Assembly (NCBI GenBank): GCA_964397195.1
Contig: CAYNGY010000001.1
Location: 134,586-198,585 of the forward strand
Length of the DNA stretch: 64,000 nt
Origin: an uncultured Gammaproteobacteria bacterium
GTDB taxonomy: Bacteria; Patescibacteriota; Patescibacteriia; SBBC01; CAIJZX01
Direction of reading: 5' to 3'
The stretch's first letter is position 1. The number at the start of each line of letters is the position of its first letter. Below the pieces are notes generated by a model that saw nothing but the letters and a program-made list of their open reading frames with translations, did not search any database and was not told the origin of the DNA. Below, piece by piece: positions 25,867-57,877 of this stretch. Position numbers and translations under genes: made by a program.

Positions 25867-25895
25867 TTGACTTCTTGGGTTTTCTGTGCTATAGT
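25867..25895 (+). promoter_or_regulatory. Strong sigma70-type promoter heading the 25.9-57.9 kb plus-strand gene train
   Basis: ttgact (25867-25872), 17-nt spacer, tatagt (25890-25895). A perfect DnaA-box 9-mer tgtggataa at about 25838-25846 and a hairpin cggcga-ctgaaa-tcgccg in the leader. Confidence 0.6.
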
Positions 25896-25994
25896 AAGGC
25901 CACGTTTTCCCGAAGGAATGACGAAAAATACTGAACAATTCTACGTGTAGAAATCGGCGACTGAAATCGCCGCTTTTGCGTTAAAAACACATCC

Positions 25995-26831
25995 ATGGGT
26001 TGGGCCGGTCGAGTTACAAAAACGAGTGCTGATACGCTCGTCAAAATAGCATCTGGGGAGCAGCCGATTCGAGCGCTCGACGAGTCCAAAACAGCTTTTC
26101 GGATTGTGATTGGCATTTCGGCCATCACCATTCTCACCACCGGTGTATTTATGTGGCGCCTGATCGTCAATTCCGCCAAGCTGCCGGTCGCCAAGAAATC
26201 GAACACGAATGTCTCGTCGACGCTCGTGGCGCTCAAGGAAAAAGATACCGACGCCGACGGGCTCAACGACTACGAAGAGCTCTACGTCTACGGCAGCAGT
26301 CCATATCTCTTTTCATCAGCCAGTGATGGCGTTGCCGATGGTGAAAAAGTAAAGCAGGGTGTTAATCCAAATTGTCAGATCGGAAAATCATGTACAGTTC
26401 CGACGCTGACCGTTGGTACCAACTCCAACGGTGATACGAATAGTTCCGTCAGTGTCAGCTTCCTTCGTCAGGCCCTCGTCGCTTCTGGTGCCTCTGCCTC
26501 GGTAGTCCAAGCGGCTGATGACGCGACCATTCTTGAAATGTACGAGCAAGCAACGCAAAACGGTTCCAGCACAAACACCAACACCGCGGTGACCAACACG
26601 TCTACCACCAACACGAGTACAACGGGGAACACGAATGTGGCCAGCAACGCCAACTCGACGGTCACGAATACCTCGGACACGAGCAGCCTGACATACGCCG
26701 ATCTCGAATCTCTGTCCGGTGCCGAAATTCGTTCGTTACTGACCTCATACGGTATCGACGCTTCAAACCTCACGCAGGTTGATGACGCAACGCTCAAAGC
26801 AATTTTTTCCGAAGCCATTTCCGGCAACTAG
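25995..26831 (+). CDS. Membrane-anchored/secreted protein with a thrombospondin-type-3-like Ca-binding motif and a Thr/Asn/Ser-rich tract
   Basis: N-terminal TM (FRIVIGISAITILTTGVFMW), DTDADGLNDYEE, and low-complexity NTNTAVTNTSTTNTSTTGNTNVASNANSTVTNTS. Confidence 0.7.
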   Translation: MGWAGRVTKTSADTLVKIASGEQPIRALDESKTAFRIVIGISAITILTTGVFMWRLIVNSAKLPVAKKSNTNVSSTLVALKEKDTDADGLNDYEELYVYGSSPYLFSSASDGVADGEKVKQGVNPNCQIGKSCTVPTLTVGTNSNGDTNSSVSVSFLRQALVASGASASVVQAADDATILEMYEQATQNGSSTNTNTAVTNTSTTNTSTTGNTNVASNANSTVTNTSDTSSLTYADLESLSGAEIRSLLTSYGIDASNLTQVDDATLKAIFSEAISGN

Positions 26832-26837
26832 ATTTTC

Positions 26838-29800
26838 ATGACTAAAACACGACGAGTTTTACGGAAACCAGTCATCGCCTTCATCGTTGGGGTGATTGCG
26901 CTTTCGTCGTTCAACGCCCAGCCGGTACGCGCATTATTTTTTATCCCTGAGGTAACCTTCAGCACGACAGTCCAAGATATTCCACGCTCGGTATCTGAGG
27001 CGGTGACGAAAGCGACCGATGCGGTTAAGGCCCGAGTCAAAGACTCAATCGCCATCGCCTTTAAGCAGGCGGCTCGTCAATTCCTTGGGAATGCCGTGCA
27101 ACAAATGGCACTCTCGCTTGCGACCACCCAGCCCGGACAGCTGCCACTTTTCTTACAAAGTCCGCGCACGTACCTCCGTGACGTGGCCGATGCGGCCGCC
27201 GGTGATTTCATCGACGGGTTTACCAAAGGTGTGACCGGCAGTTCGCAGTGTACCAGCCCCGACCCGGTCGTTCGTCAGCGCTGTCTCGAACAAACCGGCA
27301 CGACCGGCGGGAGCGATCCGACCAGTGGTCAACGTGGGCGATTTATCATCTCCCGTCTTTTGCGCGCCGGTTCCGACGCGACGTACCAAGCCTGTCTCCA
27401 AGGGGCACAGGAAAAGCATGGTATCGGGGACGCAAAAAAACTGACACTGACGTCGGTCCCGACCAACTCGATTACCAGCCTTGAAGACATGGATCGCTGG
27501 GGGAAATATACCAACGACTACCAGCGCGGGGTGGCGCTGCTGCTCAGCTTCAAAAAGTACTATCTCGACGTAGCCATTGCTTCCGGTGATCGGGAGATTA
27601 ACTGTATGCACGTCGCGCCACGGCCGGACGTGTCGACCGATCTACAGTGGGACATCGCGCCGGAAGCGTGTGTTGACTCGCCGTGCATGGTGACGCCGAC
27701 CGAGTGTTTGGCGCATGTCCAAGATGCCATCAACTACAACATCGCCGCCTCGCAAAAAGAAGAACAGGACGCACGGACGCAATGTAAGACCGGGCTGGGC
27801 GGTGACGTTCGAAATTATGTCACTCAAGCGACGGCGACCGATGTCTTCGCGGCCGCGGACAACTTTGATATTCGCACCTCGCCGAAACTCATTTCGGCGC
27901 GATTTCAGAATAATAGCGACATCAGTCAGTACTTCCAGGCCGCTGCGCTGTTAACATCGTCGGTCCAGTCAAAGTTGACTGGTGAGGATACCTATCTTAA
28001 TTCCGGGCTCCTGCCGCGGACCTCACGAGTCGGTGACAAAACGCTTGCCCCAAAAGAAGCGGCCTCGGCCCTCTTCGGTATTCCGTTCTACAACAACAAC
28101 GGTGAGTTAACGTATACCGGGACTGGCGCCGCCGACATTATTCGTGGCCTGGCGTCATTTGTGAACAGCCCGGTTGGAAAAGCACTCTTTACGTATTTCC
28201 GAAGCCAGTGTGGCTTGAACCCGAACGCCTGTAAGGGGCCGACGAATACGCAATCAGAAATTGGACGGATGCTCTTTGGTACTGGTGGGGCGACCGGGAT
28301 TGCGGCGGCGCAAGTCCAGTATGCCTCGATCGGTCAAACCGACACTATTACCGGTAGTCCGGGGAAAAATGACATTGATATCCTCGGCCAGCTGACCTCC
28401 TCGGGGATTATTGACCAAGCATTGCGCACCGCCGTCGACGAAGGTCTGACGGTCCAAGAAGCGCTGGACCGGAATTTGCTGAGCAAGAAGAAAATTGTTG
28501 GATTTGATCGGAATGGGATCGAGCCGACAAATGGCTATCCGTACCGGACGCTCCAATATCTCCGCAAGTACCGAATTATTTCGGTCGGGTGGGAACTCGC
28601 GGCGAAGTATGCCTATCAGTTTGCCTCCAATGAGCTCACCCTAGACACGCTAACGAAACAATATAGTCTCTGCGCCCAAGATACTGCCCATAAAGTCTGT
28701 TCTGACTCTCTCGTTGCCTGCACCGATTCGAGTCAATGTAATCAAGACGACGGTGAAACCTGCGGCGCGTCACCATACTGTGGCCTCGTCGATCCAAACT
28801 GGGTCCTGAAAGCACCGCAAACATTTTGCCGACGTCAGGGGGCGGGCGAAGAAATAGTCACCAAGGAATTTGTGTGTGACGTCAATAACGTCGACAAGAC
28901 TACCGGCGATGTTATTCCGACTGGCACGGTCTGCGACGACGGGACAAACGCGAATGCGGTCTGCCACGACACCGCCGCGCCGAACTGTGTTGAGAACGAG
29001 GACAACAATCAGTTTCCAGACATCGGACGCTGGGTTATTTCCCGCAACACCGACACCTGTGCCGATAGTCAATCATGTTTGGCTGAAGATGAAGACGGGA
29101 CATGTCTAGCCTATGGGTACTGCGTGCAAGAGCGTCAGACATTCAAATTTGGTGGGACGTCCTGCGAGGCTCAGAATATCAGCTGTACATCCTATACTGA
29201 TTCCTCCGGGGCAGCCGTCTCATACTTAGCAAAAAACCTCGACACGAATTGTAACGCCGACGATGTCGGATGTCAGTGGTACTGCGCCAAGCCGAGTTAT
29301 AATGACACCAATAAGCAGTGGCAGTGCACGGCGACCACCGGAACAAAAGTTCACCTAACCGCCAAGGCTGACGATTGTAAGGCCGGTGACGCTGGCTGTC
29401 GTCAGTTTATTCGTCTGACGCCGGGCACGAACTTCCTGCAAAATGGCGGCTTCGAATACTATAACGGGAATCGGATTGATGTCGATCCGGCCACCTTTAA
29501 TGGCTGGACCGCACCGGTGGCTCGCCTCACGCCAATCACGTCTACCGACAGCGACAACACGGTTGGCAACACCGTTGCCGCCCGGGCACAATTTACCCTG
29601 GCCTCGGACACGATCCGACAGACGGTGAACATCGGTGCATCCCCGAACGGTCGGGTTTTCACTTTCTCCCTTCGCGCACAAGCGGCGACCAGTTGTTCGG
29701 CGGAAATCACCCTTTGCACCGGGAGCGATTGCCAAACATCGGCCGTCCACCCGAGCGCCACGTTTACGGCGACACCGAGTTGGGAAACGTATGCGGTGAC

Positions 29801-32486
29801 CATGGCTGTCCCGAGCGCCGATATCACGCCGATCAGTTCAACGCTACTCACGGCGGTCATCCGTCCGGATGGTTGTCATGATGCTGGATTTGCGGTCGAC
29901 AGCGCTCAGGTCAAAGAGTCGAGCGAGACCTCAACCTTCAGCGAATACGGCACGACCAATGTTGTCCATCTGAACGGTCAACGCCGTACGTGTGAGGCGG
30001 CCGATATTGGGTGCGAACGGTACACTCCAGTGGCGGGTGGCGCCGTGGTCAACGGTATTCTCGCCTCGGAAAATCTGTGCACCCGCGATCAGGTCGGCTG
30101 TCAACAATACGAGCGTCAACCGATTACCTCGGTTCCGTATCGTGACGCACGTCCGAATCAACCCGCAACGGGCGTTGATGTCACGATTGTCGCCGCCCAA
30201 GGAAAGCTCTGCTCGGCAGCGGAAGTCGGCTGTGAAGAATATACCAACCTCGACGCGGTCAAAGCCGGTGGCGAGGGGAAAGAGTATTACCAAACGGCGC
30301 GACAGTGTGTACCAACCACATCAACGGTGGCGAAAAAAACCTATTACACATGGATTGGTGATCCGGAAAAAGGATTTGTCCTGCAATCCCAGCAACTCGT
30401 GGTCTCGAATTTGAATGGTGGTCCATGTGCCCAGATGGGACTTGGTCGAAGTGATGGTACGCTACCGACCTGCCGCGATACGGCCGCTACAATCAATGCA
30501 GCCGCTTGTCTTCAGGGCGACCTCGCGTCTGACCCGGATTGTGCGGAGTTCTATGATTCCGATCTGAACGTCTACTACATGCATCGCTCGGCGACTGTCC
30601 CGGTCAGTGCCGACTGTCATCCGTATCGAAATACAATCGACAGCACCGAGCCAACGTGTCAGGCGGGTCTCTGCTCAAGCGGTGGCTTCGCTGGCCAAGC
30701 ATGCTCGGCTGACAACGACTGCCGCAACGGCGTCTACTACATGGCCAAGAAGCAAAACACCTCGTGTTCTGCTGCTGCCGCTGGCTGTCGCGAATTCATT
30801 GGGAATAGCGGCCGGGCCTCACGACAGATTTTCCAGGACACGATGGAGAAGTCGAGCCTCTCGAACTGGGTCGGTGGATCGTGGAGCGCATCTTCTCCAA
30901 ACGCTTCCGGTCACTCCATCCGTATCGATCCGCCAAATAGTTCCACCAAGGGCGTGGCCTTTACCGTTACCAGCGCCTTGAAGGGGAAGGTGGCGACTGG
31001 AAAATCGTATCTTCTGACTGTCACCGCCGCGGCGGCCACGCCGGGTGATGATATTCGGTTGCGAGCCTTCTTCGGTCGCGGGAACGATGTCAGCGGCTCG
31101 TTCGATGAGCTCGGGGGTGTCGCCTTCCAGCAAAATGCGGGTGCCCAGCTAGTGTGGAACGAATCCATTACGCCGGCCGGCCCCGAGTGGCATTCATACA
31201 CGCTTGGTCCGATTTCTCTTTCCAACGCGGTCGATCCGGACTGGCGCCTCGGCCTCGTGGTTGAGGGTGGCTCAGGGTATGTCGACAATGTGAAGCTGAC
31301 TGAGATTAATGATCGAACGTACGTCGTCAATAATTCTGCGCCGCTCTGTCCGGCTTCCGCCATTGGCTGTCAGGCTTACCGTGATCGCGCCGGGTCGTTA
31401 AACTACGCCACTTCATTCGCCCGACTCTGTAATGATAAAGTTGTCGGTTGTGAAGCGATGATTGACACACAAAACAGCACCACGCCGTTCGAGCAAACGG
31501 TCAAAGGTGTGACGACGCCGGCCGATCGAATCGTAACCGTAGTGAATGATAGCGCCAATTACTGCAACGCCAGCGCGAAAGCCTGTGAAATGGTGGGCGA
31601 GCCGGTCTATGGCCGCGATGACACCATTGCGAGTTTCAAAACCGTGTATAAGATCATTGATCCAGACCAATTCTCGACGGATCTGTGCTCAGCTGAAGCG
31701 GTGAGTTGTGAGGCGTATACGACACAAGAAGGGACAACCGTTTACTTCAAGGACCCACGCGGGCGGACCTGCGAGTACCGGAGTGGCGGTTCCATCACCG
31801 GCGGCTGGTTCATTACCGGTACCTCCTATCGGTGTCCAACAGTGACGCCGCCAACCGTCAGTCAACCAATTGGTGCATCATGTACACCGGTCTGTGCCGG
31901 CGGAACGCGGGACGGGAAAGCGTGCAAAACGGTTGGATCGTCAGCTGAGTGTCCGGGAAGCCCGGCGGGTGTTTGCACGGGGAATGCCGCTACGACCGGA
32001 AAGATAGTGGTCGATGGGAATCCCGTTGTCGGTTCGTGTACGACTGATACGCAGTGTGGAACGAACAAGTGTCGATACTTGGTTGGGGTGTGTCCGAGCA
32101 CCGAAAACGGATGCACGGAATACCGTGACCCGACCGAGCCCGTGAATTGTCGTGCTGAATGTCCACTTGAGTTGATGGGCGGTACTCCATTGTATGTCGA
32201 CGCGAGCTGTACGAAAACGGTTTGCGCGAGCTCGGACCCGGCCAACAAGCGGATCGGTCAAAACTGCCAAACCAGTGATCAGTGTACATATGCCGGTATC
32301 CCGGGAACGTGTGTCGGAGCTGATAATAATGTGACGACCGGGGCGCCGGGCTGTCGCGCCTATACCTTAATTCGGCAATCGGTTGAAGACACCGCCAGCG
32401 ATTGTAATGGTCAGATTAATACCGCCACCGGCTGCCGGCCGTTCTATGATACGTCGAATTCGTCCCTTAACTTCCGCGGCCAATGA
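26838..32486 (+). CDS. Giant (1882 aa) secreted/surface protein with at least 13 copies of a C-x4-5-[GAS]-C-x2-[YF] cysteine repeat
   Basis: N-terminal signal-anchor MTKTRRVLRKPVIAFIVGVIALSSF. Repeats include CNADDVGCQWY, CKAGDAGCRQF, CEAADIGCERY, CTRDQVGCQQY, CSAAEVGCEEY, CSAAAAGCREF, CPASAIGCQAY, CNDKVVGCEAM, CNASAKACEMV, CSAEAVSCEAY and CPSTENGCTEY, spanning 29.06-32.45 kb. Confidence 0.85.
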   Translation: MTKTRRVLRKPVIAFIVGVIALSSFNAQPVRALFFIPEVTFSTTVQDIPRSVSEAVTKATDAVKARVKDSIAIAFKQAARQFLGNAVQQMALSLATTQPGQLPLFLQSPRTYLRDVADAAAGDFIDGFTKGVTGSSQCTSPDPVVRQRCLEQTGTTGGSDPTSGQRGRFIISRLLRAGSDATYQACLQGAQEKHGIGDAKKLTLTSVPTNSITSLEDMDRWGKYTNDYQRGVALLLSFKKYYLDVAIASGDREINCMHVAPRPDVSTDLQWDIAPEACVDSPCMVTPTECLAHVQDAINYNIAASQKEEQDARTQCKTGLGGDVRNYVTQATATDVFAAADNFDIRTSPKLISARFQNNSDISQYFQAAALLTSSVQSKLTGEDTYLNSGLLPRTSRVGDKTLAPKEAASALFGIPFYNNNGELTYTGTGAADIIRGLASFVNSPVGKALFTYFRSQCGLNPNACKGPTNTQSEIGRMLFGTGGATGIAAAQVQYASIGQTDTITGSPGKNDIDILGQLTSSGIIDQALRTAVDEGLTVQEALDRNLLSKKKIVGFDRNGIEPTNGYPYRTLQYLRKYRIISVGWELAAKYAYQFASNELTLDTLTKQYSLCAQDTAHKVCSDSLVACTDSSQCNQDDGETCGASPYCGLVDPNWVLKAPQTFCRRQGAGEEIVTKEFVCDVNNVDKTTGDVIPTGTVCDDGTNANAVCHDTAAPNCVENEDNNQFPDIGRWVISRNTDTCADSQSCLAEDEDGTCLAYGYCVQERQTFKFGGTSCEAQNISCTSYTDSSGAAVSYLAKNLDTNCNADDVGCQWYCAKPSYNDTNKQWQCTATTGTKVHLTAKADDCKAGDAGCRQFIRLTPGTNFLQNGGFEYYNGNRIDVDPATFNGWTAPVARLTPITSTDSDNTVGNTVAARAQFTLASDTIRQTVNIGASPNGRVFTFSLRAQAATSCSAEITLCTGSDCQTSAVHPSATFTATPSWETYAVTMAVPSADITPISSTLLTAVIRPDGCHDAGFAVDSAQVKESSETSTFSEYGTTNVVHLNGQRRTCEAADIGCERYTPVAGGAVVNGILASENLCTRDQVGCQQYERQPITSVPYRDARPNQPATGVDVTIVAAQGKLCSAAEVGCEEYTNLDAVKAGGEGKEYYQTARQCVPTTSTVAKKTYYTWIGDPEKGFVLQSQQLVVSNLNGGPCAQMGLGRSDGTLPTCRDTAATINAAACLQGDLASDPDCAEFYDSDLNVYYMHRSATVPVSADCHPYRNTIDSTEPTCQAGLCSSGGFAGQACSADNDCRNGVYYMAKKQNTSCSAAAAGCREFIGNSGRASRQIFQDTMEKSSLSNWVGGSWSASSPNASGHSIRIDPPNSSTKGVAFTVTSALKGKVATGKSYLLTVTAAAATPGDDIRLRAFFGRGNDVSGSFDELGGVAFQQNAGAQLVWNESITPAGPEWHSYTLGPISLSNAVDPDWRLGLVVEGGSGYVDNVKLTEINDRTYVVNNSAPLCPASAIGCQAYRDRAGSLNYATSFARLCNDKVVGCEAMIDTQNSTTPFEQTVKGVTTPADRIVTVVNDSANYCNASAKACEMVGEPVYGRDDTIASFKTVYKIIDPDQFSTDLCSAEAVSCEAYTTQEGTTVYFKDPRGRTCEYRSGGSITGGWFITGTSYRCPTVTPPTVSQPIGASCTPVCAGGTRDGKACKTVGSSAECPGSPAGVCTGNAATTGKIVVDGNPVVGSCTTDTQCGTNKCRYLVGVCPSTENGCTEYRDPTEPVNCRAECPLELMGGTPLYVDASCTKTVCASSDPANKRIGQNCQTSDQCTYAGIPGTCVGADNNVTTGAPGCRAYTLIRQSVEDTASDCNGQINTATGCRPFYDTSNSSLNFRGQ

Positions 32487-35400
32487 TGACCTCGCGCCGC
32501 CATTTGCAACAGCGATTAGCGCTCGGTTTCGGCGGGATCATTTTTGGGGCCCTGGTGGCTACTATGCTCACCCAACACGCCATTGCCGCCAGTGCCTTAG
32601 CAGTCTGTCTCGGACCACAAACTCGTGGGAATGGTGAGGACTGTTTAACGGGGTTAGTCTGTGTTGGCGGAGTGAATCTCGGCGAGTGCACCGATTTTGT
32701 GACCACCGTGACCAACTCGGTGTCGGGGGTAAACTCGATCCAAGTTACGATCAACGCGAATGCTGAGGTGCCCCCGAGTTTCTCATCCTCGTATTGTCTG
32801 GGTACCACCACATCGTGTGGGACGCCGACAACCAAACCGACATTGTGGAGTGCACCGATCAATGGTGTTGGTGGTCGGACCTTGACGATCAACGGTCTTC
32901 GTCCGGGGCGAGCCGTTAACCTCTCATTTACTGGTGTATTCCAATCAACGACCAGCATCATCGACTATTCTAGCTACACTATCCCGGGGTTAAAACCAAC
33001 GGGTGTCAACGTGACGAACCTTGCCTCAGGGTCACCGACCCTCGCCTGGACAACGCAAACGCCGGGAACCACACAGGTCACTTATTCCGAGAGCGCTCCG
33101 GCGTGGACGAATGAGAGCCTAACCCTGCCAAGTTCGGAGACAATGATGGCCATGACCGCGCTCCCGAACCGTTCGGCGTGGGCAGTGACCAACAACGGGA
33201 AAGTGTTTGGAACAACGGGTACCACCTGGAGCGCCGCTCAATATACGGATTCGGCCTCTCGCGTTATCCGTGGCGTGGATGCGGCGAGCCAAAACTGGGT
33301 CTGGGCCGTCGGCGAGCTGGGCGGCACGCCAGCCCGGCCGATTATTCTGCAAAGTACGAACGGTACGAGTTGGACGAGTATCACACCTTCTATTTCTATT
33401 GCGAACCACCTCTACGCGGTTTCAACGCCGACGACAAACTCCGTCTGGATGGCTGGTGACGGTCAAAAAGTCTACGCCTTACAAAATGGTGTTTGGTCGG
33501 ATAAAACGCCAAACAACCTAGCGTCATCACAGCACTTCTTTGCAATTCTGGCTTTGAATAACCTTGATGTTTGGGCGGCCGGGAGCGGCGGCCAAGTGGC
33601 GCATACCACCGATGGCGGTGCGACATGGAATTATACGACCCTGCCAAACGGAAGCGGCGTCGGGGTAGCCTCGCTCGCCTCGGTTGATGGGAAAACCATT
33701 TGGGCCGGCGGATCGAGTGGCCACCTCTGGAAGTATCCAGTCAGTCCCACGAATCTGACCTGGCAGCAAGTCAGTTTACCGTCCGCCTCGAATATCGTGA
33801 ACGTTGCCCTCTCGGCTCCTGATGATGTCTGGTTTAGCCAGGGTGGCTTCGTGGTTCATATCCCATCCGGCTCAAGTACGCCGGTGTACGATCCGCAACC
33901 AGCGAGTGCGCTCGGTGACTCGTTGATACAGGCGGTGGCGCCGATTAGTGCCACGCGTGTTTATGCGGCCACGAATAACCACACGGCTCTCTACGGCCTG
34001 ACGGGGACTACCATCCCAGACTCCTTATCGACGACGACGCATGCCATAAGTATTCCGTCGACGTCGCTGGTCCGGAATCAATTGTATTATGCTGCCCTCG
34101 AATCGTGGAACTCTGGGTATGTGACCGGGGCTTTTACGACGTTCTTGACGCCGTTACCGGATACTGAGCCGCCAACAATCACGTTTACCTCTCCCGCGAG
34201 CGGCGATACAGTCTATACGCACGGCACGGGCGCTGATACACAATATCTCGTTCGCGGGACAATCGCTGATAATATCTCACTGCAAGACATGTGGATGTGT
34301 GATCCGTTTGTATCATGTTGGCCGCGGCCGGATGCATATCATTTAACGAATATTGCGCCGAGCCTCCCAATCTCAGGAACAAATGTGAACGCCATATGGA
34401 ATCAGACGGTGGTCGCAAATTCGGCGACCGGCAGCAAAGACGAAGAATTCAGAGTTTTTGATGGACAGAATTACGCTACCAAAACCCTTCATGTCATATA
34501 CGATGGCACGGCACCCGCCGTAGACTTCAGTCCCGAGTCTTGGGCCTATCTTGGATCATTCGGCACCGTTCGCGTCAGTAGTTTACCGTTTACCGTCACC
34601 GGAACTGTGTCGGACACGAACCCAATTACCCGTTTAGAATATCAGTTGAATGGCGGGGCGGCGCAGTCGTTGACCATCCCGACGCTGCCGGCCACGAACT
34701 GGAGCATCACCTTCCCGGTGAACTCATTGATCGCGGGGGATGCGGGGAATGAAATCATCGTTCGGGCTTTTGATGCCGCCGGAAATGTCGGCGTATCGAA
34801 TGCAGGGTATCTCTATTACGATGCACCAACATTCACCCTCTCGGCGAACCCGTCTACTGTGCAACGCGCGCCACAAGGTCAGTCGGTCACATATACTGTT
34901 GATGTGCACCCGCTCTACGGTTTTAATCAGCCCGTTACATTTACCTCGAATAACGCCAACGGCCTAGTGGCAACGTTTTCACCAAGTACCATAACTAGTC
35001 CGTATACCGGTGGGGTGACGATGACGGTGGCAACTTCCGCGGCCGCTCCGACGGCCGGCACATATCGTCTGACGGCCACGGGCACCGGCGACGGTCAATC
35101 AGCCGATGTGGCTGTCGATATTGGGGTTGATGTCGCGCGAAACTACACGCTCTCGGCCGCTCCAAATAGTCCGCTACCGAATCTTATCGCTGGGAACACC
35201 GGGTCATATGCGTTGACGATGAAAGCGAATGAATCATTTGCCGGTACGGTTGCTTTAAGTGTGACCGGGTTGCCGTCTGGGGTCACATCTCGCTTTATCC
35301 GTGGTGGCGTCGCGGTCACCACCGCCACATTTGCCGCCAACGAACTCATTGACGATGTGGCACTCGAAGTCACGGCCGCCGCGAGTGCTCCAGCCGCTAC

Positions 35401-49706: not shown

Positions 49707-49707
49707 T

Positions 49708-50220: not shown

Positions 50221-50226
50221 TTCCGT

Positions 50227-50952
50227 ATGGCCACACCGTCACAAAAAACGCCCCCACGACCGAAAAAAGTTGCGCCTTCAACGCAGCAGTATTTGGATAT
50301 CATGGAAATTCGCGACGATGCTGTAGTGATGAAGAACGGCGGATTAGTAGCGGTGCTCCTCGTGTCGTCAATCAATTTCTCGCTCAAATCAGAAGAAGAA
50401 CAAGAAGCGGTGATTGGGGCGTACGTCTCGTTCCTGAATACCATCGATTTTCCGCTTCAAATCGTCATCCAGTCCCGTCGCCTCGATATTGATGCCTATC
50501 TTGAAGTCCTCAAAGGTGTCGAGAAACAACAAACGAACGAACTGCTCAAGACGCAGACACAGGATTATCGTCGCTTTGTGAACGAGCTCGTGCAGATGAA
50601 CGCGATTATGTCGAAGCGTTTCTATGTGGTCATTCCTTTTTCACCAAAAGTAGATCGTCCGGGCAAATTCTTTAGCCGCCTGCTCGATGCCTTTGCGCCG
50701 ACGGAAACTATTCATTTGAAACAGAAGCAGTTTGAAAAATACCGCCTTGAATTATTTAAGCGGGTCGATAACGTCATGAACGCGCTATCGGCGGCCGGAC
50801 TCCAGTCACAGCCCTTACGGACGCAGGAACTGATCGAGCTGTACTACAATTCCTATAATCCCGAAACTGCCCGTCAAGAAAAACTCGACGACGTCCGAAA
50901 ATTGTCTTTAGAGGAAGTGTCATCTATCAAGCCCGACAATGCCCGAAGTTAA
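50227..50952 (+). CDS. VirB4/TrsE N-terminal domain encoded as a separate ORF
   Basis: YLDIMEIRDDAVVMKNGGLVAVLLVSSINFSLKSEEEQEAVIGAYVSFLNTIDFPLQIVIQ resembles the N-terminal (CagE/TrbE) region of VirB4. Its stop overlaps the ATG of the ATPase ORF by 14 nt, a +1 frame change. Confidence 0.6.
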   Translation: MATPSQKTPPRPKKVAPSTQQYLDIMEIRDDAVVMKNGGLVAVLLVSSINFSLKSEEEQEAVIGAYVSFLNTIDFPLQIVIQSRRLDIDAYLEVLKGVEKQQTNELLKTQTQDYRRFVNELVQMNAIMSKRFYVVIPFSPKVDRPGKFFSRLLDAFAPTETIHLKQKQFEKYRLELFKRVDNVMNALSAAGLQSQPLRTQELIELYYNSYNPETARQEKLDDVRKLSLEEVSSIKPDNARS

Positions 50953-52861
50953 TCTCTTCCGCCCAAACGAATTCCGTAGCGCCCCCCAAGCGAGTGGTGG
51001 TGGCACGACCCCAAAACTCCCCGAGGACGAGCGGGAGCTCCTTGAGGCTGAGCGCATCTACCGCCAAGGCGTCGTTCGAGAACTCGATCTTATCGCCCCG
51101 GCCGCCTTTAAGGTTGACCCGAGATTTCTGATGCTCAACGGTCGCTACGTTCGGACGCTCTTCGTTATTTCCTATCCGCGATACATCTCCGTTGGCTGGT
51201 TCGCGCCAATCATTAATTATAGCGCTCCGTTAGATGTCTCGATGTTCTTCTACCCGATTCCCTCGGACATCATCCTGAGGCAGTTAAAAAATAAGGTCGG
51301 CGCCCTCGAAGCCCAGCTGATTACTGACCAGGAAAAAGGCGCCCCGCGTGATCCGATGCGTGAAACAGCGCTTCGTGATATCGAAAAACTCCGCGACGAT
51401 TTAACGCAGGGGACCGAGAAGTATTTCCAGTTCGCCCTTTATGTTTCCTTTTACGCGGATTCGCTCAAAGAACTGGACGAACTGACAAACCGTATGGAGG
51501 CCCTCTTCGGCTCTCGTCTCGTGTACTCAAAGCGCTCCTTTTTCCAGTCCGAGCAGGGATTCACCTCAACCATGCCGCTTGGCCTTGATCGGCTTCAGGT
51601 CGCGTTCAACATGAACTCGTCCCCAATCGCCTCAAGTTTTCCGTTTATGTCGGCGGACCTGTCGAGTGATAATGGGATTTTGTACGGTATCAACCGTCAT
51701 AATAACTCGCTTATTCTCTTCGACCGTTTCTCCCTGCCAAACCCAAACTATACCGTCTTCGCTACCGCCGGTGCCGGTAAGTCATTCGCCGTCAAGTTAG
51801 AAATTATTCGGTCGATGATGTTCGGGACTGATATTATCGTCGTCGATCCGGAGCATGAATATAAATATCTATCTGATGCGGTCGGCGGGACGTATATTAA
51901 TATCTCCCTGAACTCCGATACGAAGATTAATCCCTTTGATCTCCCGCGCGGGATTGGCGGCGATGAAACCCCGGCCGATATTATTCGGTCCGCGGTTATT
52001 ACGCTCAAGTCCATGTTGCGCCTGATGCTGGGCGACGTGACTCATGAGGAAGATTCTATCCTCGATCGGGCGCTCCTCGAAACCTACGCCAAGAAAGATA
52101 TTACGCCGGATGCGGACTTAGCGAATATCGAGCCGCCCGTCATGTCAGATTTTCAAGAAGTATTGAGCGGTATGACCGGCGCCGAGAGTCTAGCGGAACG
52201 GTTGAAAAAATATACCGAAGGTACGTTCTCGGGGCTTTTTAACAGTCGGACGAACATTGAGCTGAACAATCAACTCGTCGTCTTCTCGGTCCGCGATCTT
52301 GAGGATGAACTTCGCCCAATCGGGATTTCGATTATTATTTCTTATATTTGGAATATCGCTCGTTCGCAGCTCAAGCGCCGCATTCTCGTCATTGATGAAG
52401 CGTGGTGGTTAATGCAACATGAAGACTCGGCAAAATTCGTTTACGGCCTCGTAAAACGATCGCGGAAATATTATCTGGGCGTTACGACGATTACCCAAGA
52501 CGTGAATGATTTCTTGCTCAGTCCATATGGTCAGGCCATCATCAATAACTCAGCACTTCGGCTGCTGATGAAACAATCGCCGGCGGCGATTGAGATTGTT
52601 ACCAAAACCTTCCTCCTGACCCAACAAGAACGGTATTTGTTACTTGAGGCGGGCGTCGGCGAGGGAATCTTCTTCGCCGGTACAAAACATGCCTACATGC
52701 AAGTCGTCGCCTCGCCGACAGAAAATCAGATCGTCACGACGAATCCAGAAGAGGTACTTCGCTTGGAAGAAGCGAAGCGCGAATTTGAAGACTCAATTGC
52801 CTCTGGGACGGCGACGAATGCCGGAGCGGCCGTCACCAACCCCGAAGATTTAACATCATAA
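50939..52861 (+). CDS. VirB4/TraC/TrsE-family type IV secretion ATPase (C-terminal ATPase portion)
   Basis: Walker A FATAGAGKSFAVK at about 51.77 kb, Walker B ILVIDEAWWLM at about 52.39 kb, and characteristic YISVGWF..., LDRLQVAFNMNS and GVTTITQD blocks. Confidence 0.9.
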   Translation: MPEVNLFRPNEFRSAPQASGGGTTPKLPEDERELLEAERIYRQGVVRELDLIAPAAFKVDPRFLMLNGRYVRTLFVISYPRYISVGWFAPIINYSAPLDVSMFFYPIPSDIILRQLKNKVGALEAQLITDQEKGAPRDPMRETALRDIEKLRDDLTQGTEKYFQFALYVSFYADSLKELDELTNRMEALFGSRLVYSKRSFFQSEQGFTSTMPLGLDRLQVAFNMNSSPIASSFPFMSADLSSDNGILYGINRHNNSLILFDRFSLPNPNYTVFATAGAGKSFAVKLEIIRSMMFGTDIIVVDPEHEYKYLSDAVGGTYINISLNSDTKINPFDLPRGIGGDETPADIIRSAVITLKSMLRLMLGDVTHEEDSILDRALLETYAKKDITPDADLANIEPPVMSDFQEVLSGMTGAESLAERLKKYTEGTFSGLFNSRTNIELNNQLVVFSVRDLEDELRPIGISIIISYIWNIARSQLKRRILVIDEAWWLMQHEDSAKFVYGLVKRSRKYYLGVTTITQDVNDFLLSPYGQAIINNSALRLLMKQSPAAIEIVTKTFLLTQQERYLLLEAGVGEGIFFAGTKHAYMQVVASPTENQIVTTNPEEVLRLEEAKREFEDSIASGTATNAGAAVTNPEDLTS

Positions 52862-52864
52862 CTC

Positions 52865-53419
52865 GTGCGTCGGTATCTCCTCATCTCCATCATCGGACTT
52901 CTCGCCATCGTCATTATCGGCGGCGGCGTCATACTGTTGGTTGACCGGACGCCCGCTCTACAAAATGCGATCAATGGGGAAAAAAATAATTCGATCATCA
53001 ATACCGCGATTGTGACAAACACGGCGAATACGAACACGAAGCCGAACACGGACAAAGCCGATGTGCTTCTTGTCGCCCGGGTTTTTACGGAACGGTACGG
53101 AACCGGATCGAGTGACGACGCGTTTGCCGGGTACCTGGCAGCCGTACCATATGCCACGACCGCGCTCGGTAATCAACTTGAGGCGAATGTTCGGGCGCAG
53201 AAACCAGCCACCGATGTCAATTATCGAGGTTTCGTAACGCACGTCGTGTCCTTAACGATCGATCAAGCGTCGTCCACGGTCGCCACCGTTCGAGTCGGAA
53301 CCCAGCGTACCGAGACAATTGCCACGACGGCCAAACAATATAATCAATCCATCACGCTGCTGGTAGTGAAGGAGTCAACCGGGTGGAAGGTCTCCTCCGC
53401 GCAGTGGCAGGCGCTCTAA
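52865..53419 (+). CDS. Membrane-anchored periplasmic protein, VirB8-like / NTF2-like fold candidate
   Basis: N-terminal TM (LLISIIGLLAIVIIGGGVILLV) followed by a roughly 150-aa domain with an alternating beta-strand pattern (VVSLTIDQASSTVATVRVGTQRTETIATTAKQYNQSITLLVVKESTGWKV). Confidence 0.5.
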   Translation: MRRYLLISIIGLLAIVIIGGGVILLVDRTPALQNAINGEKNNSIINTAIVTNTANTNTKPNTDKADVLLVARVFTERYGTGSSDDAFAGYLAAVPYATTALGNQLEANVRAQKPATDVNYRGFVTHVVSLTIDQASSTVATVRVGTQRTETIATTAKQYNQSITLLVVKESTGWKVSSAQWQAL

Positions 53420-53420
53420 T

Positions 53421-54263
53421 ATGGCCGATGCTATGTCAGTCACAATGACGCCAGAAGAACGCGCGAACAGTGCGGCCTGGGCCAAGGCGCGATTGCAGCA
53501 ACTGAAATCAACGCGTCGTGGTGCGGCGCGTACGGAATATGCCAGTGCCCTGAACGCCGACACGGCGGCGGGTCGTGATGCCTACCAGCGTAACGTCGGG
53601 ACGCCAATGCAGTCGGGGATTAATCGACAACTTAACCGGCTCCCGTCGTCAGTACGAAGCGTGGTCCAACCGTTTGCCGATCAGTATCTGCAAGCCCAAG
53701 AAAATTTGAATGATCGCCGATTGCGTGTTGGGGCGGCTACCCAAGCGTTGATGGCGAACGGCGAGCTGGCTCAAACGGCGGCCGCCCGATCGGCCCGCGC
53801 CGCGACACTCCGCGGCCTACGGAAGGCCGCTCGAGGTGAGGCTAGTCCTACTGAGGCGGAGAATGAAGCCCTAGCGAGTATTCAGCCCTTGGCCGAACAG
53901 GCGTGGGCCCGTTTGTGGGACATTCTTCAGTCGACCTTAGCCGCGCTGGGCACGGCATTTTGGGGGGTACTATCGACGGTCACACTCGTCCCAGTAGTCG
54001 CTGTCTTTTTTGCCAGACTCCTTGGTCGCATGTCATTCCGTATCGGTTTTCGGGGCGCTAAAGTCCATTTCGTGTCACCATATTCCGGTGCGGGGATGAT
54101 GACCCATGTGGTCAGCCTCCTGATGAATGTCGGCTGGGCTATCATATGGCTATCGGTCATGATTTTCCTGGTCTATCTCTATATTGAAGCCCAAGACAAA
54201 GTGTGTTGGGCGAGTTGGGTTGTCAATTTTTTCCGCGCTGGTTTTTGTCCATCCTCATCATGA
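53421..54263 (+). CDS. Hypothetical membrane protein (280 aa) with a C-terminal multi-TM region
   Basis: Soluble Ala/Arg-rich N-terminal half, then the hydrophobic helices LAALGTAFWGVLSTVTLVPVVAVFF and WAIIWLSVMIFLVYLYI. Confidence 0.65.
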   Translation: MADAMSVTMTPEERANSAAWAKARLQQLKSTRRGAARTEYASALNADTAAGRDAYQRNVGTPMQSGINRQLNRLPSSVRSVVQPFADQYLQAQENLNDRRLRVGAATQALMANGELAQTAAARSARAATLRGLRKAARGEASPTEAENEALASIQPLAEQAWARLWDILQSTLAALGTAFWGVLSTVTLVPVVAVFFARLLGRMSFRIGFRGAKVHFVSPYSGAGMMTHVVSLLMNVGWAIIWLSVMIFLVYLYIEAQDKVCWASWVVNFFRAGFCPSSS

Positions 54264-55399
54264 TACAGAAGGTGTTTCTACCGCTGGTTGTTGGACTTAC
54301 CCTGATCGGGGCATCGTTTGTATTTGTGCCTAGCCCGGTGCATGCGGTCGATGTCACCAAAGAAAAGCAGTACTTTATCCCTGACATCATCCTGCCGGGA
54401 CAGTTTGAGCGCGTGGAGATCGATAGTAGCCTGATGTCGAAGTACTTCCGGGCACTGTACGTCTACATGGTCTACATCGTCAGCATTATTGCGGTGGTGA
54501 TGATTATCTATGGTGGTTTGAAATGGGTCGCGGCGGCCGGAAATTCCGCCCAAATTAATGATGCGAAAGACGTGATAACTAATGCGGTTATCGCTATCGT
54601 GATCGGCCTGACCTCATATGTTTTGCTGTACGTCATCAATCCAAAACTCCTAAATCTGTCCTTACCACTCGGCGACACCGTCACCCAACACGCTCTCGGC
54701 ACACTCTGGAATGAGCAATTGGGCTGTTTTGAACAGTTAAGCTGTCCGCCGGGGTCAACACAAGTTCTTGGAGCAACGTGTGGGAGCAACTACACGACCG
54801 TAAATCCGGGTGAAAATGCCTGTACAGCGGCGGCTGCCGGCGGGAAAGGGATTTGTTGTCAGGCGGGTGATAAGTGTTATCGGTACTCTGCCTACGATGG
54901 GTCGCTTACCTCGAAGCTGCCGTATACCTGTAGTGCGGTCGATTCCGGCGATGAGTCGAAACGCCCATATTGTAAAGACGCGACGCCGTGTGGGACAACG
55001 ACGAAAGACTGCAGTGGTCTGACCTGTGGCGGTGGAAACAGTTGCTTGCTCATGTTTGTGAAGGAGCCGGACGGGTACAAAAACCGCTCCAAGTGTGTGA
55101 CCAGCAATGGCCTAGTAACCGAGAATGCCCTCAGCTGTGCCTCGGCATTATCCGGTGTCGATACGAAATTCACGATTCAGACCGATGCGAATCGAAACTG
55201 TGGGTGGGCGGCAAAAGGGGAAAGGTATTTGCACGCCGGGACCGATCCGCGTACCTGTTCAGCCGATCAAGTGTGTGTCATCATCCCGCCGAATATCTAT
55301 ACATCGGCCGAAGGAAAGGACATGTGTGTCTATCGTCAAACCGATGCGCAAGGGCTTGTCTATGACCCGATGCCATCCAAATGCATAACTATCCGCTAA
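54260..55399 (+). CDS. Pilin-like (TrbC/VirB2-like) two-helix module fused to a C-terminal disulfide-rich domain of about 230 aa (24 Cys)
   Basis: Start set at Met 54260 (MIQKVFLPLVVGLTLIGASFVFVPSPVHA signal). The module YMVYIVSIIAVVMIIYGGLKWVAAAGNSAQINDAKDVITNAVIAIVIGLTSYVLLYVINPKLLNL is shared with two paralogs. Confidence 0.7.
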   Translation: MIQKVFLPLVVGLTLIGASFVFVPSPVHAVDVTKEKQYFIPDIILPGQFERVEIDSSLMSKYFRALYVYMVYIVSIIAVVMIIYGGLKWVAAAGNSAQINDAKDVITNAVIAIVIGLTSYVLLYVINPKLLNLSLPLGDTVTQHALGTLWNEQLGCFEQLSCPPGSTQVLGATCGSNYTTVNPGENACTAAAAGGKGICCQAGDKCYRYSAYDGSLTSKLPYTCSAVDSGDESKRPYCKDATPCGTTTKDCSGLTCGGGNSCLLMFVKEPDGYKNRSKCVTSNGLVTENALSCASALSGVDTKFTIQTDANRNCGWAAKGERYLHAGTDPRTCSADQVCVIIPPNIYTSAEGKDMCVYRQTDAQGLVYDPMPSKCITIR

Positions 55400-55403
55400 G
55401 TGT

Positions 55404-56648
55404 ATGAATGAACGTCTCAAGCGCGCGTTGATCATCACTGGGTTTGTTTTAGTTGTCATTGGGATGTTCGTGGTGATTTATTTTGTGTTCTTTCGTTCCA
55501 CTGACCAACTGAACGGAAACACGAACCAGCCGGGCAATATCAATGGTCTGCCGAACGCGAACAACGGAAACCGTAATGCCTCGACAGGTAGTAATGTAAA
55601 CAGTCTGCCAGTCACAAATACCTCGGCGTCTGGCCCGAGTAAATATGCTGATGGAGGCGCGACCTTGGTTGAAACGGTCGTCAACACGCCGGTCGCCGGT
55701 CAAACCGTCAGCAACACCGGGAGTTTACAATACTACGATCGCCAAACCGGAAAGTTCTTCCAAGTTTCCGCCGATGGGATGTCAACCAAGGTGATGACGG
55801 ATGCGATCTACAAGGATCTCGATACTGTCACCTGGGATCCATCCGGCACGAAAGCCATCCTCCAATTTCCGGACGGGTCGAAGGTTCTCTATAACTTCGC
55901 CACCAAGAAACAGTCGACCCTACCGCGGGAACTCGATAATTTCTCATTCTCACCAACGGGCAGCCAAATTGTTTCGAAATATCTTGATGCCAAACATCTC
56001 GACAACCAGTGGCTGATGGTTTCAAACCCGGATGGCACCGGTTCACAATCAGTTGAACAACTCGCCGAGAATGCCGATAAGGTCATTGCTGCGTGGTCAC
56101 CCAACAATGCGGTGGTTGGCACCTACGAACGATCGTCGACGAGTAGTTCATCCGATATTATTTTCCTCGGGAAAAACAATGAAAATTACCCACTCGTCAC
56201 AGTTGACGGGAAAGGTTTTACGCCAAACTGGTCACCGGATGGATCGAAGATTCTCTATAGCGTCTACAGCGACGACACAAACAACGCCGCTCACCTCTAT
56301 ATTATGAATGGCGATGTTAACACCTTAGGGCAAAATATCATCGATCTCAATCTGAACACGAGCGCCAATAAATGTGCGTTCTCGCAGGACAATTACACTA
56401 TCTACTGCGCTGTTCCGTACTACACGGTGGAGAACTCGGGACCGATACCTTCGCTCGGGTATAGTGTTCCGGACAATCTCTATGCCATTGATATGCTCCG
56501 TGGGACGACGACCCTTCTCGCCCGGCCGGTGGATGAGCACAGTCTCCAGCAGTATTCGGTCGGGAGCATTCGACTCTCCGGTGATGAGTCGGCTATATAC
56601 TTTACGGACGCTAATACCGGCAAGCTTCATCGGATCTTGCTCCCATGA
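55404..56648 (+). CDS. Membrane-anchored TolB-like (PD40/WD40-like beta-propeller) protein
   Basis: N-terminal TM (ALIITGFVLVVIGMFVVIYFVFF). Repeated PD40-like blades WDPSGTKAILQFPDGS, FSPTGSQIVSKYLD, WSPNNAVVG and WSPDGSKILYS. Confidence 0.75.
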   Translation: MNERLKRALIITGFVLVVIGMFVVIYFVFFRSTDQLNGNTNQPGNINGLPNANNGNRNASTGSNVNSLPVTNTSASGPSKYADGGATLVETVVNTPVAGQTVSNTGSLQYYDRQTGKFFQVSADGMSTKVMTDAIYKDLDTVTWDPSGTKAILQFPDGSKVLYNFATKKQSTLPRELDNFSFSPTGSQIVSKYLDAKHLDNQWLMVSNPDGTGSQSVEQLAENADKVIAAWSPNNAVVGTYERSSTSSSSDIIFLGKNNENYPLVTVDGKGFTPNWSPDGSKILYSVYSDDTNNAAHLYIMNGDVNTLGQNIIDLNLNTSANKCAFSQDNYTIYCAVPYYTVENSGPIPSLGYSVPDNLYAIDMLRGTTTLLARPVDEHSLQQYSVGSIRLSGDESAIYFTDANTGKLHRILLP

Positions 56649-57877
56649 TCGCTCGCCCGTCACGATGGTTTTTCCTCGCGGTGTTCGGGGCGTTTCTCCT
56701 GCCCTTGATGGTGTCCGCGGAGGCGTTTACCGTCACATGCGAAACGGGCGATGATACGAGCAAGGTCGCGGGGACACCAGCGATGGTCTACGTTCCCGAT
56801 ATCACCATTCCGGGATTCACGGCCAGTCAAAAAGTGACGATTTCCGGCGACACACTTGGACTCTATATCCGCGGCCTCTTTGTGGTTATGGTCTGGACCG
56901 TGAGTGTCCTAGCGGTGGTGATGATCATCTACGGCGGGATCAAGTGGGTGGCAGCAGCAGGAGACGCGGGTCGGATCAATGATGCAAAAGATGTGGTCAT
57001 GAACTCAGTCATCGGGCTGGTGATTGCCCTCACATCGGTCGTACTTCTGCAAATCATAAATCCACAGCTGATAAATCTCACGGACCTGACCAACCTCGTT
57101 AAGCCGGTGAATAAGTGCTCACTCTCCGTCCTGCAACAATTGGTGGAAAAGAGCGGCAAGCTCGAGGCGAAATGTGCTTCGGGGCTCGGGACGCCGGAGC
57201 CCGATACCGTGTGCTTTGCGACGCCTGGGGTACCGTGCATTACGGGATTGAACCAGCTGATCAAACAGGCCGCCAGTTACACGCGGAGTGACGGCCACCT
57301 CGTCAGCGTCGACCCGATCATGATGAAGGCCATATTGTTAGGTGAGGCCGCCAACCAAGGTAAAACGACCTTGGTGTCAGGGCCAACCGCTGGACGGGCG
57401 TGTAAGCAAGATACGCCACGCTGTAAGTTGAAGGGCTCAGCCTATGGGATTATCCAAATGACCCATGCGACGATGATCGCAAATTGGGAACGGGTCAGCG
57501 GTTCAGTGCCCGCGGCCTGCGGGAGCGAAAATGAGGCGGTCTGGCGACAATCGTCGGGGTCATTAGCGGCCGATTGCGCGCGCATCCTCGATAATGGAAA
57601 GGAAGGCATACTCCTACAACTTAAAATGATGGCCAGCGAAATATCCGAGGTGGCGACGAAGAAAATATTAAATGACAATCCCACCTATATTGCCGGCGCG
57701 TACCATCTTGGCTCCGGAGGGATTGAAGAGTATCTCCGAACCGGAGAAGCGCGGAGCGAGTCCAGCTCAGCCTCGGTCGCCTACCTCAAAGCATTTAACG
57801 AGCGTTTCCATTCTATTTGTATTGAGTCGGCCGTTCAGAACTACGAAAACGATCGACCGGGGACCGCGCGAGAATAA
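56645..57877 (+). CDS. Pilin-like (VirB2-like) module fused to a lytic transglycosylase (SLT/VirB1-like) domain
   Basis: The N-terminal module VVMVWTVSVLAVVMIIYGGIKWVAAAGDAGRINDAKDVVMNSVIGLVIALTSVVLLQIINPQLINL is a paralog of the 54260 gene. The C-terminal domain carries SLT-like blocks LLGEAANQG, SAYGIIQM and AGAYHLGSGG at about 57.34-57.72 kb. Confidence 0.7.
   Translation: MIARPSRWFFLAVFGAFLLPLMVSAEAFTVTCETGDDTSKVAGTPAMVYVPDITIPGFTASQKVTISGDTLGLYIRGLFVVMVWTVSVLAVVMIIYGGIKWVAAAGDAGRINDAKDVVMNSVIGLVIALTSVVLLQIINPQLINLTDLTNLVKPVNKCSLSVLQQLVEKSGKLEAKCASGLGTPEPDTVCFATPGVPCITGLNQLIKQAASYTRSDGHLVSVDPIMMKAILLGEAANQGKTTLVSGPTAGRACKQDTPRCKLKGSAYGIIQMTHATMIANWERVSGSVPAACGSENEAVWRQSSGSLAADCARILDNGKEGILLQLKMMASEISEVATKKILNDNPTYIAGAYHLGSGGIEEYLRTGEARSESSSASVAYLKAFNERFHSICIESAVQNYENDRPGTARE

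Follow-up and report, generated by a model that had tools for sequence, protein, structure and literature searches.

A putative non-conjugative type IV secretion locus with giant exported proteins and pilin fusions in a Kerfeldbacteria-like Patescibacterium

The stretch of DNA analyzed here, called the window below, comprises 64 kb of contig CAYNGY010000001.1 from an uncultured Patescibacterium. It contains 16 consecutive open reading frames (ORFs) on the plus strand (g01 to g16, 25995-57877), and on balance we favor the view that this block is a chromosomal, vertically inherited and non-conjugative type IV secretion system (T4SS) of a Kerfeldbacteria-like Patescibacterium of the class ABY1, within a clade derived from the MPF-FATA systems. 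The core of the machine is a new instance of a T4SS that has already been published from the Patescibacteria. New with respect to the literature searched are a module of giant Cys-rich proteins (g02 and g04) beside VirB6, the clade-wide fusion of VirB2-like pilin hairpins to further domains, and an extended VirB6 that bears an HExxH motif. No paper linking the giant proteins or the pilin fusions to a Patescibacterial T4SS was found, in a search that left subscription journals mostly outside. A preliminary description, made from the DNA sequence, had spoken of a train of about 20 genes; the one-strand train is real, but it consists of 16 genes, or 17 if the radA gene that follows is counted.

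Core components of the secretion system

The T4SSs described from the Patescibacteria consist of TrsD and VirB4, PrgI, VirB6, VirB8 (mostly in ABY1) and VirB2-like pilins. They are chromosomal, have no relaxase or type IV coupling protein (T4CP) nearby and derive from the MPF-FATA systems of monoderms (PMC12102498; PMC10633639; PMC12857230). A homologue of TrsD is their commonest component (Quinonero-Coronel et al. 2025, PMC12102498), and the loci of ABY1 adjoin radA, recG and comF (PMC12102498). In the Saccharibacteria, the homologous system of Southlakia epibionticum (SEML1_0006-0019) is essential for epibiotic growth (Wang 2023, PMC10633639; reviewed in PMC12857230). The window resembles this clade in its PrgI/VirB3, in the combination of TrsD with VirB4, in a protein whose orthologues point to VirB6, in a VirB8-like protein, in its pilins and in the radA/recG context. 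The preliminary description had stated that the combination could be matched to no characterized system, and in this it was mistaken. Its assignments of VirB6-like, PrgI/VirB3-like, split VirB4 and VirB8-like proteins are borne out, for VirB6 by way of orthologues, by the evidence that follows.

The VirB4 loci compared here are those of the best 80 of 447 relatives in species-representative genomes. By title, these 80 are mostly metagenome-assembled genomes of Patescibacteria, and the identity of their VirB4 proteins to that of the window is 64-83%. Many of the nearest (80-83%) are titled Candidatus Kerfeldbacteria, and the others carry generic or probably mis-assigned titles. The NCBI lineage places the Kerfeldbacteria within the Patescibacteria/Parcubacteria group, and we infer that these Kerfeldbacteria-like relatives belong to the GTDB class ABY1. 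The preliminary description had looked to synteny in relatives for support, and across the species representatives the order g04-VirB6L-g08-PrgI-TrsD-VirB4-VirB8L-pilin-propeller-pilin-(RadA)-RecG is indeed kept, where VirB6L and VirB8L denote the VirB6-like and VirB8-like proteins.

The ATPase is encoded by two ORFs. The larger, g11 (50939-52861; 640 amino acids [aa]), is the C-terminal P-loop part of a VirB4 of the CD1110/MPF-FATA type. It matches NF045971 (conju_CD1110) at 1.1e-105 with 354.6 bits, compared with a cut-off of 325, over profile positions 186-729, and it matches PF19044 at 2.7e-29. The smaller, g10 (50227-50952; 241 aa), overlaps g11 by 14 nucleotides (nt), is present in all 80 loci and is TrsD-like; it represents the VirB4 N-terminal domain, here encoded by itself. 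Its NCBIfam matches (TrsD 7e-8, VirB4_plasma 2e-11, CD1110 9e-6) fall on N-terminal profile positions and are all below the curated cut-offs; the CD1110 VirB4 model that it matches at positions 2-119 is the one matched by g11. Because g11 aligns from position 186 onward and g10 supplies the N-terminal part, we conclude that VirB4 is split in two. Directly upstream, g09 (49708-50220) encodes a PrgI/VirB3-like protein with two transmembrane (TM) segments, which matches PF12666 at 1.1e-8 with 35.9 bits (cut-off 27), is found in 77 of the 80 loci and adjoins virB4. Downstream of g11 lies g12 (52865-53419), a VirB8-like protein consisting of an N-terminal TM segment, a linker and one NTF2-like domain. 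This protein was identified by structure, in a search with a profile built from its orthologues in the loci; when g12 alone was the query, the homologue search found only g12. VirB8 proteins with a single NTF2 domain are an established class (PMC12857230). Neither a relaxase nor VirD4 was found among the scanned ORFs of the window, in agreement with the preliminary description, which had also listed VirB11 as missing, a protein that was not specifically sought here.

The VirB6-like protein, g05 (42152-47158; 1668 aa), was recognized from its topology and from the matches of its orthologues. The protein itself has no direct family match and no sequence match in the PDB. Nine of 36 orthologues, however, match PF04610 (TrbL/VirB6; best value 3.3e-7), and two further relatives match TrbL/TrbL_3 weakly. 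A signal-like N-terminus and approximately seven TM segments occupy the first 360 aa of g05. They are followed by a strongly basic stretch and then by a Cys-free tail of about 1300 aa, rich in A, R, E and K, which by the positive-inside rule is probably cytoplasmic. Among 38 orthologues g05 is the longest, the other 37 measuring 784-1292 aa. The preliminary description had singled out the 1300-aa tail, which is present, but the extended VirB6 is in itself a known subclass (PMC12857230). Its representatives in the Rickettsiales and the Orf15 proteins of the Tn916 type (700-900 aa) likewise combine a polytopic N-region with a large hydrophilic C-region (PMC12857230). What distinguishes g05 is its length and an HExxH module that it shares with six distant orthologues (L016, L063, L078, L045, L057 and L026), in all of which N...HExxH is invariant. 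The motif is at residues 1094-1098 (45431-45445 in the window) and the module extends over approximately 44771-45793. A Pfam scan assigned the module to no family; from its sequence, it may be a zincin-like domain.

The remaining genes of this part of the block are less informative. Between VirB6L and PrgI lie g06 (47164-47859), a soluble protein of 231 aa that occurs in close relatives only (10 loci), g07 (47856-48152), a 98-aa protein found in 12 loci, and g08 (48225-49706), a soluble protein of 493 aa with conserved N- and C-terminal domains joined by a Pro-rich linker. In 70 of the 80 loci g08 is upstream of prgI, and in the window directly so; Pfam and PDB searches, with the orthologues included, matched it to no family. 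Inspection by eye suggests that the N-terminus of g06 looks like the conserved N-terminal domain of g08 (LP..., LE.KY...). Between VirB8L and the first pilin module is g13 (53421-54263), a fast-evolving membrane protein of 280 aa with two or three C-terminal TM segments, for which there are only three weak positional orthologues.

Giant exported proteins upstream of VirB6

Only 2 nt separate VirB6L from the upstream gene g04 (36750-42149), which encodes an exported protein of 1799 aa with 5.5% Cys. This protein has FN3-like domains at its N-terminus, a PKD-like C-terminus (IDWGD...DNWGWC) and, at approximately residues 760-910, a conserved core with the motif CRLYP...GYCLE...WWPVD. A family search returned 580 cluster representatives at E<=1e-3 and 205 at E<=1e-30, most of them 1200-3400 aa long. 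The position of this family relative to VirB6L was determined in two ways. First, with VirB4 as the anchor, the upstream sequence extends for at least 9 kb in 50 loci, of which 34 encode VirB6L. A g04-family ORF precedes VirB6L in 26 of these 34, directly or across one small intervening gene; for three of the other eight there is no upstream sequence to examine. Second, four members of the g04 family were picked arbitrarily for a reverse look-up, and each of them proved to be encoded just upstream of a gene for a VirB6-like protein (about 1000-1200 aa), immediately in three cases and with a gene of 141 aa between in locus L084.

Two further giants precede g04. The first, g02 (26838-32486), is an exported protein of 1882 aa with 4.5% Cys, in which the motif C-x5-6-[GSA]C-xx-[YFM] occurs 11 times, compared with 0.15 expected in shuffled sequences. 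The motif is absent from g03 and g04, so that the C-x-GC-x-Y repeats ascribed earlier to the giants are a property of g02 and not of the other two. Read by eye, the repeats flank CBM-like modules of the "NGGFE" type. Full-length homologues of g02 form about 10 clusters with 39-57% identity, and some of these show weak CBM_4_9 matches. No Pfam, NCBIfam or PDB relative was found for g02 or g04, a Pfam scan of g04-family members recognized no family either, and the homologues of g02 and g04 give weak CBM_4_9, PA14, PKD or FN3 signals only. The second, g03 (32483-36742), is an exported protein of 1419 aa, in which scans indicate a BNR/Ycf48-like propeller and Ig/FN3-like domains; its orthologues carry PSII_BNR, Big_7, Glucodextran_B and BACON_2. 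The sizes of the three giants had been given correctly in the preliminary description. Its label of Cys-rich fits g02 and g04 but not g03, which contains 1.3% Cys.

The gene for g03 is absent where g02 and g04 are fused. In L084 a single protein of 2778 aa consists of a g02-like N-terminal part and a g04-like C-terminal part, and this fusion argues that the two act together. In many members of the g04 family, with lengths of 2400-3400 aa, the g04 core is situated at about residue 2000-2600, an indication that such fusion may be common. In both L084 (10001-18337) and L085 (10001-19345) one protein of 2800-3100 aa replaces the separate giants, although both parts were shown for L084 only. In these two loci VirB6L is followed by phosphoribosyltransferase (ComF-like) genes, not by those for PrgI and VirB4.

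The giants are preceded by g01 (25995-26831), a protein of 278 aa with one N-terminal hydrophobic segment and an S/T/N-rich tail. It bears DTDADGLNDYEE, a Ca-binding motif like that of thrombospondin type 3, in accordance with its earlier description as a small secreted protein with a Ca-binding motif. Orthologues of g01 always precede a giant gene and show a faint PF18884 (TSP3_bac) match.

The N-termini of g02, g03 and g04 each present a basic stretch, a hydrophobic segment and an AxA-like site, and the three giants are probably exported by Sec. The distribution of Cys fits this. Cys makes up 4.5-5.5% of g02, g04 and g14 and 2.4% of g16, whereas VirB6L, in spite of its 1668 aa, contains none, and neither do g06, g07, PrgI, TrsD, VirB4 and VirB8L. 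Cys is thus missing from every cytoplasmic or membrane part.

A parallel to a giant surface protein encoded with such a machine is offered by pCF10 of Enterococcus faecalis, the MPF-FATA prototype. There the order VirB6 (PrgH)-VirB3 (PrgI)-VirB4 (PrgJ) is that of the window, and the machine cooperates with PrgB, a surface adhesin of large size (PMC12857230). Downstream of VirB4, pCF10 encodes the VirB8-like PrgL and PrgK, a peptidoglycan hydrolase anchored in the membrane; the VirB8-like protein and the candidate hydrolase of the window also follow VirB4, but in the opposite relative order. The genes prgA, prgB and prgC lie upstream in the same pCF10 operon. pCF10, a conjugative plasmid, encodes a relaxase and a T4CP but no pilins, and its PrgB is LPxTG-anchored and possesses a polymer-adhesin domain. 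The window has no relaxase or T4CP among its scanned ORFs, a split VirB4, pilin-like hairpins, and giants that are unrelated in sequence to PrgB and lack LPxTG; Pfam and NCBIfam scans and inspection of the C-termini revealed neither a PrgB-type polymer adhesin domain nor a C-terminal LPxTG in g02 and g04. The 2025 survey of Patescibacterial T4SSs detected no PrgB-type adhesins (PMC12102498). We consider it fairly probable that the giants belong functionally to the machine, a point to which we return below.

Pilin modules and the propeller between them

The last three genes of the block encode two pilin modules and a propeller. In g14 (54260-55399) a VirB2-like T4SS_pilin hairpin (PF18895 3e-6, above the cut-off) is followed by a C-terminal domain that has 21 Cys in about 240 aa. 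In g16 (56645-57877; 410 aa) the same kind of hairpin (PF18895 8e-7, above the cut-off) is likewise followed by a C-terminal domain. Between them lies g15 (55404-56648), an N-terminally anchored beta-propeller of the TolB/PD40 type. Its NCBIfam matches are weak (TolB 3e-6 and Dpp5 3e-7, both far below the cut-offs), and its relatives in 26 loci are 30-54% identical over the full length. These data uphold the earlier reading of two pilin-like modules fused to extracellular domains and, by way of the weak TolB match, that of a TolB-like propeller. Pilin modules are encoded by 49 ORFs in 27 related loci, usually two per locus, and wherever both genes are present, as in the window and its nearest relatives, the propeller gene stands between them. 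The fusions are widespread, as 44 of the 49 modules (about 90%) have an extension of 150 aa or more behind the hairpin, the median number of Cys being 10.

By analogy with the known topology of VirB2, a hairpin whose signal peptide is cleaved would place the C-terminal domain outside the cell. With this placement, the pilin fusions are most plausibly wall hydrolases and binding domains that are anchored through VirB2 or displayed on a pilus. The C-terminal domain of g16 has no direct match in Pfam or the PDB. In positional orthologues, the hairpin is followed by SLT (L015, 9e-18; L005, 0.0056) or by Peptidase_M23 (L002 and L009), and g16 aligns with the L005 orthologue with 32% identity over residues 49-397. 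From these relationships, the domain of g16 is probably lytic-transglycosylase-like and a candidate for the role of VirB1. The VirB2-SLT fusion of the preliminary description can thus be retained by way of the orthologues, though not through any direct SLT match in the 410-aa protein. Most VirB2-bearing genomes in the 2025 survey lack a recognizable VirB1 (PMC12102498), and we suggest, as a conjecture, that fused hydrolase domains of this kind might explain part of this scarcity. The present loci depart from the published Patescibacterial T4SSs in two respects. First, Cys-rich domains are joined to most of their pilin modules, and peptidoglycan-hydrolase domains occur in some positional orthologues. 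Second, the giant family precedes VirB6. The survey mentions neither giants nor fusions.

The window also encodes a stand-alone VirB2-like T4SS pilin of 109 aa (61771-62100, plus strand; PF18895 2.5e-12, 47 bits), situated 3.9 kb beyond the train, past RecG and a tRNA-Arg. In L001 an orthologue of 110 aa adjoins recG. If the window encodes a conventional short pilin, it is most likely this 109-aa protein.

Locus organization, function and alternatives

Inspection of the spacing within the train shows that adjacent genes are separated by at most 7 nt or overlap by 4-14 nt (-14 to +7 nt). The exceptions are the 180 nt between KsgA and g01 and the 72 nt between g07 and g08. The gaps of 8 nt or less that had been reported for almost the whole train were therefore found, except at the latter junction. 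The upstream housekeeping genes for LeuRS, a Sua5/TsaC-type protein, an MFS protein and KsgA (20418-25814, same strand) are packed just as tightly. Dense packing is consequently a trait of the genome as much as of the block, and by itself it delimits no unit.

A promoter-like site of the sigma-70 type (TTGACT-17 nt-TATAGT with a TG extension; 25867-25895, plus strand) lies in 25815-25994, the sole sizeable intergenic gap before the train. It agrees with the consensus at 10 of 12 positions, with an extended -10, and is the top plus-strand match within 36 kb. The overall counts of the scan are not clearly above those in shuffled sequences, so that the strong promoter proposed at this place exists as a site of uncertain distinction. 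An internal start had been proposed near 48200, where the promoter scan found no promoter-like site. A GC-rich hairpin followed by a T-rich stretch (25955-25972, plus strand) stands downstream of the promoter-like site, ahead of the g01 start codon, and could be a leader structure or an attenuator. In the first 20 kb of the train, terminator-like sites are no commoner than in shuffles; a scan of 45800-62200, which includes downstream sequence, yielded 28, compared with 17.6 in shuffles (standard deviation 4.4).

Three nt after g16 begins the gene for RadA/Sms (57881-59239, plus strand; TIGR00416 5.8e-153), which, given this spacing, is probably co-transcribed with the train. It is followed by RecG, identified by reading its translation, on the opposite strand and convergent with the train (59241-61310, minus strand). 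RadA is downstream of the T4SS in 19 of 39 loci and RecG in 26 of 39. Further downstream are the tRNA-Arg (61427-61504), a small membrane protein (62122-62781, minus strand) with a conserved core of about 165 aa that recurs close to the T4SS in 23 of the 80 loci, and a protein with M23 and FG-GAP repeats (62649-63947, minus strand), the second M23 protein of the window. Upstream lie a tyrosine recombinase gene (9059-10021), a Mg-chelatase-like ATPase of the ComM/YifB type (17458-18957, plus strand), assigned by its Mg-chelatase architecture and taken by us to be ComM, and a LysM-M23 peptidase (18935-20212, minus strand). The last two are conserved upstream neighbors in L081, L082 and L084. Next comes the leucyl-tRNA synthetase (20418-23279, plus strand), in which a domain scan revealed an inserted NUDIX domain at residues 391-516. 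NUDIX is also present in the LeuRS of L082, and L084 and L085 show a Ser_hydrolase/abhydrolase signal instead. The synteny from LeuRS to VirB6L is complete in two Kerfeldbacteria-like contigs and the GC content is even across the window (51-60%), and together these argue for vertical chromosomal inheritance.

On the reading that we favor, that of a chromosomal, non-conjugative T4SS, the parts would act as follows. The pilin fusions would be exported by Sec, as would g01 to g04, VirB8L and the propeller. The peptidoglycan would be opened by the hydrolase-like domain that g16 carries on its hairpin, in the role of VirB1. VirB6L, PrgI and VirB8L would form the channel, powered by TrsD and VirB4. 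The giants, with their CBM-like, BNR-propeller, Ig/FN3/PKD-like and disulfide-rich modules, and the Cys-rich pilin domains would bind the surface of the host, the giants paralleling the PrgB adhesin of pCF10 without homology to it. The whole block would be transcribed from approximately 25867.

The least certain step is the nature of the channel substrate. We tentatively propose that nucleic acid is imported or exchanged on contact, much as in the ComB or Ced systems; this is the leading possibility, but we hold it with somewhat less than even confidence. Import is favored because it needs neither a relaxase nor a coupling protein, and because RadA ends the operon while RecG and the ComM-like gene are nearby. 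The ComB system of Helicobacter and the crenarchaeal Ced system are likewise derived from T4SSs and work without relaxase, VirD4 or VirB11 (PMC12857230), and in the window recombination genes adjoin the machine. ComB differs in being a diderm system with VirB7/9/10. The matches to Ced components are far below their cut-offs (CedB 30.7 bits, cut-off 700; CedD 14.2 bits, cut-off 600), a result that bears on membership in that family and not on the mode of working.

Several observations weigh against these proposals. The SLT call for g16 is indirect, through orthologues, and it is from spacing alone that the block would be taken as an operon. RadA is missing from its place downstream of the T4SS in the closest Kerfeldbacteria relatives. 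In S. epibionticum transformation needs ComEC, and the T4SS is essential independently of it (PMC12857230), which lends no support to DNA uptake. As for the giants, g02 and g04 have no recognizable adhesin domain and their C-termini lack LPxTG. The available sequence of L084 and L085 shows no PrgI or VirB4 gene after VirB6L, and in L083 about 6 kb with unrelated genes lie between the giant and VirB6L. Finally, Sua5, KsgA, LeuRS and the small TSP3-motif protein g01 are conserved neighbors of the giants as well, and because plain housekeeping neighbors are conserved too, synteny is weaker evidence for function in these small genomes than elsewhere.

These last points lead to an explanation that we regard as possible, though unlikely, in which the giants are plain proteins of the envelope or surface layer, have simply retained an ancestral gene order and stand outside the function of the T4SS. 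The pair of g01 and a giant always follows Sua5-KsgA too, unrelated genes do part giant and VirB6L in L083, and the giants use Sec rather than the T4SS. The adjacency of g04 and VirB6L nevertheless survives deep divergence (VirB4 identity 65-70%), as seen in the 26 of 34 loci and in the four of four reverse look-ups. It extends even to loci in which no PrgI or VirB4 appears downstream, and in the window the junction measures the 2 nt noted above.

We give a comparably low probability to the export of proteins, and rank it below the import of nucleic acid. According to this explanation, the machine would deliver effectors or toxins into or onto the host and the giants would be adhesins only. 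Wang et al. have proposed that the homologous essential system exports proteins or has some other role (PMC10633639), no relaxase or T4CP is nearby, and the 1300-aa VirB6 tail with its HExxH module could be a substrate dock or a processing domain. Yet the block encodes no candidate effector that lacks a Sec signal and no coupling protein for the selection of substrates, and RadA, which closes the operon, and the nearby RecG and ComM-like genes also count against it.

An integrative conjugative element, or its remnant, with relaxase and coupling protein elsewhere, is most improbable. It is true that the VirB4 is of the conjugative CD1110 type, that T4CP homologues are often far from virB4 in Patescibacteria (PMC12102498), and that the window contains a tyrosine recombinase and a tRNA-Arg. 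But the block stands between the same housekeeping genes in different species, the GC content is uniform and no relaxase or VirD4 was found among the scanned ORFs of the 64 kb. Relaxases are in any case few, with 109 in 103 Patescibacteria genomes, of which 15 are near virB4 (PMC12102498). We therefore reject a conjugative reading, since the housekeeping flanks are conserved and the scanned ORFs of the window include neither a relaxase nor a T4CP, and concur with the preliminary description that this is no classical conjugative element but a machine of the kind found in host-dependent ultra-small bacteria. The same description had left open whether the giants are cargo or adhesins; that they are cargo of the T4SS is just as improbable and is rejected, because for all their shared orientation and tight packing with the machine they have Sec-typical N-termini, Sec already delivers proteins to the outside in a monoderm, and richness in Cys is expected of extracellular disulfide-bonded proteins, so that an adhesin or surface-module role is the better reading.

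A broader proposal, which we offer as speculation and think rather doubtful as a whole, is that ABY1 has rebuilt its T4SS as an organelle of host contact, in which giants of a family not recognized before bind or penetrate the host, VirB2 hairpins, put to new use as anchors in the membrane or pilus, display hydrolases and Cys-rich domains, and the channel imports host nucleic acid with no need of a relaxase or coupling protein. If this were true, the imported nucleic acid would serve recombination and the supply of nucleotides, coupled to RadA, RecG and ComM. Since the core machine is already known, the gain is incremental and no new kind of system is described. The Patescibacteria make up a large share of uncultivated bacteria, however, and in one genetically tractable member the T4SS is essential for growth on the host. 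The giant family upstream of VirB6 and the pilin hairpins with hydrolase or Cys-rich domains are candidates for the missing surface module of ABY1, and the giant Cys-rich family beside the T4SS may be the missing part that makes contact with the host.

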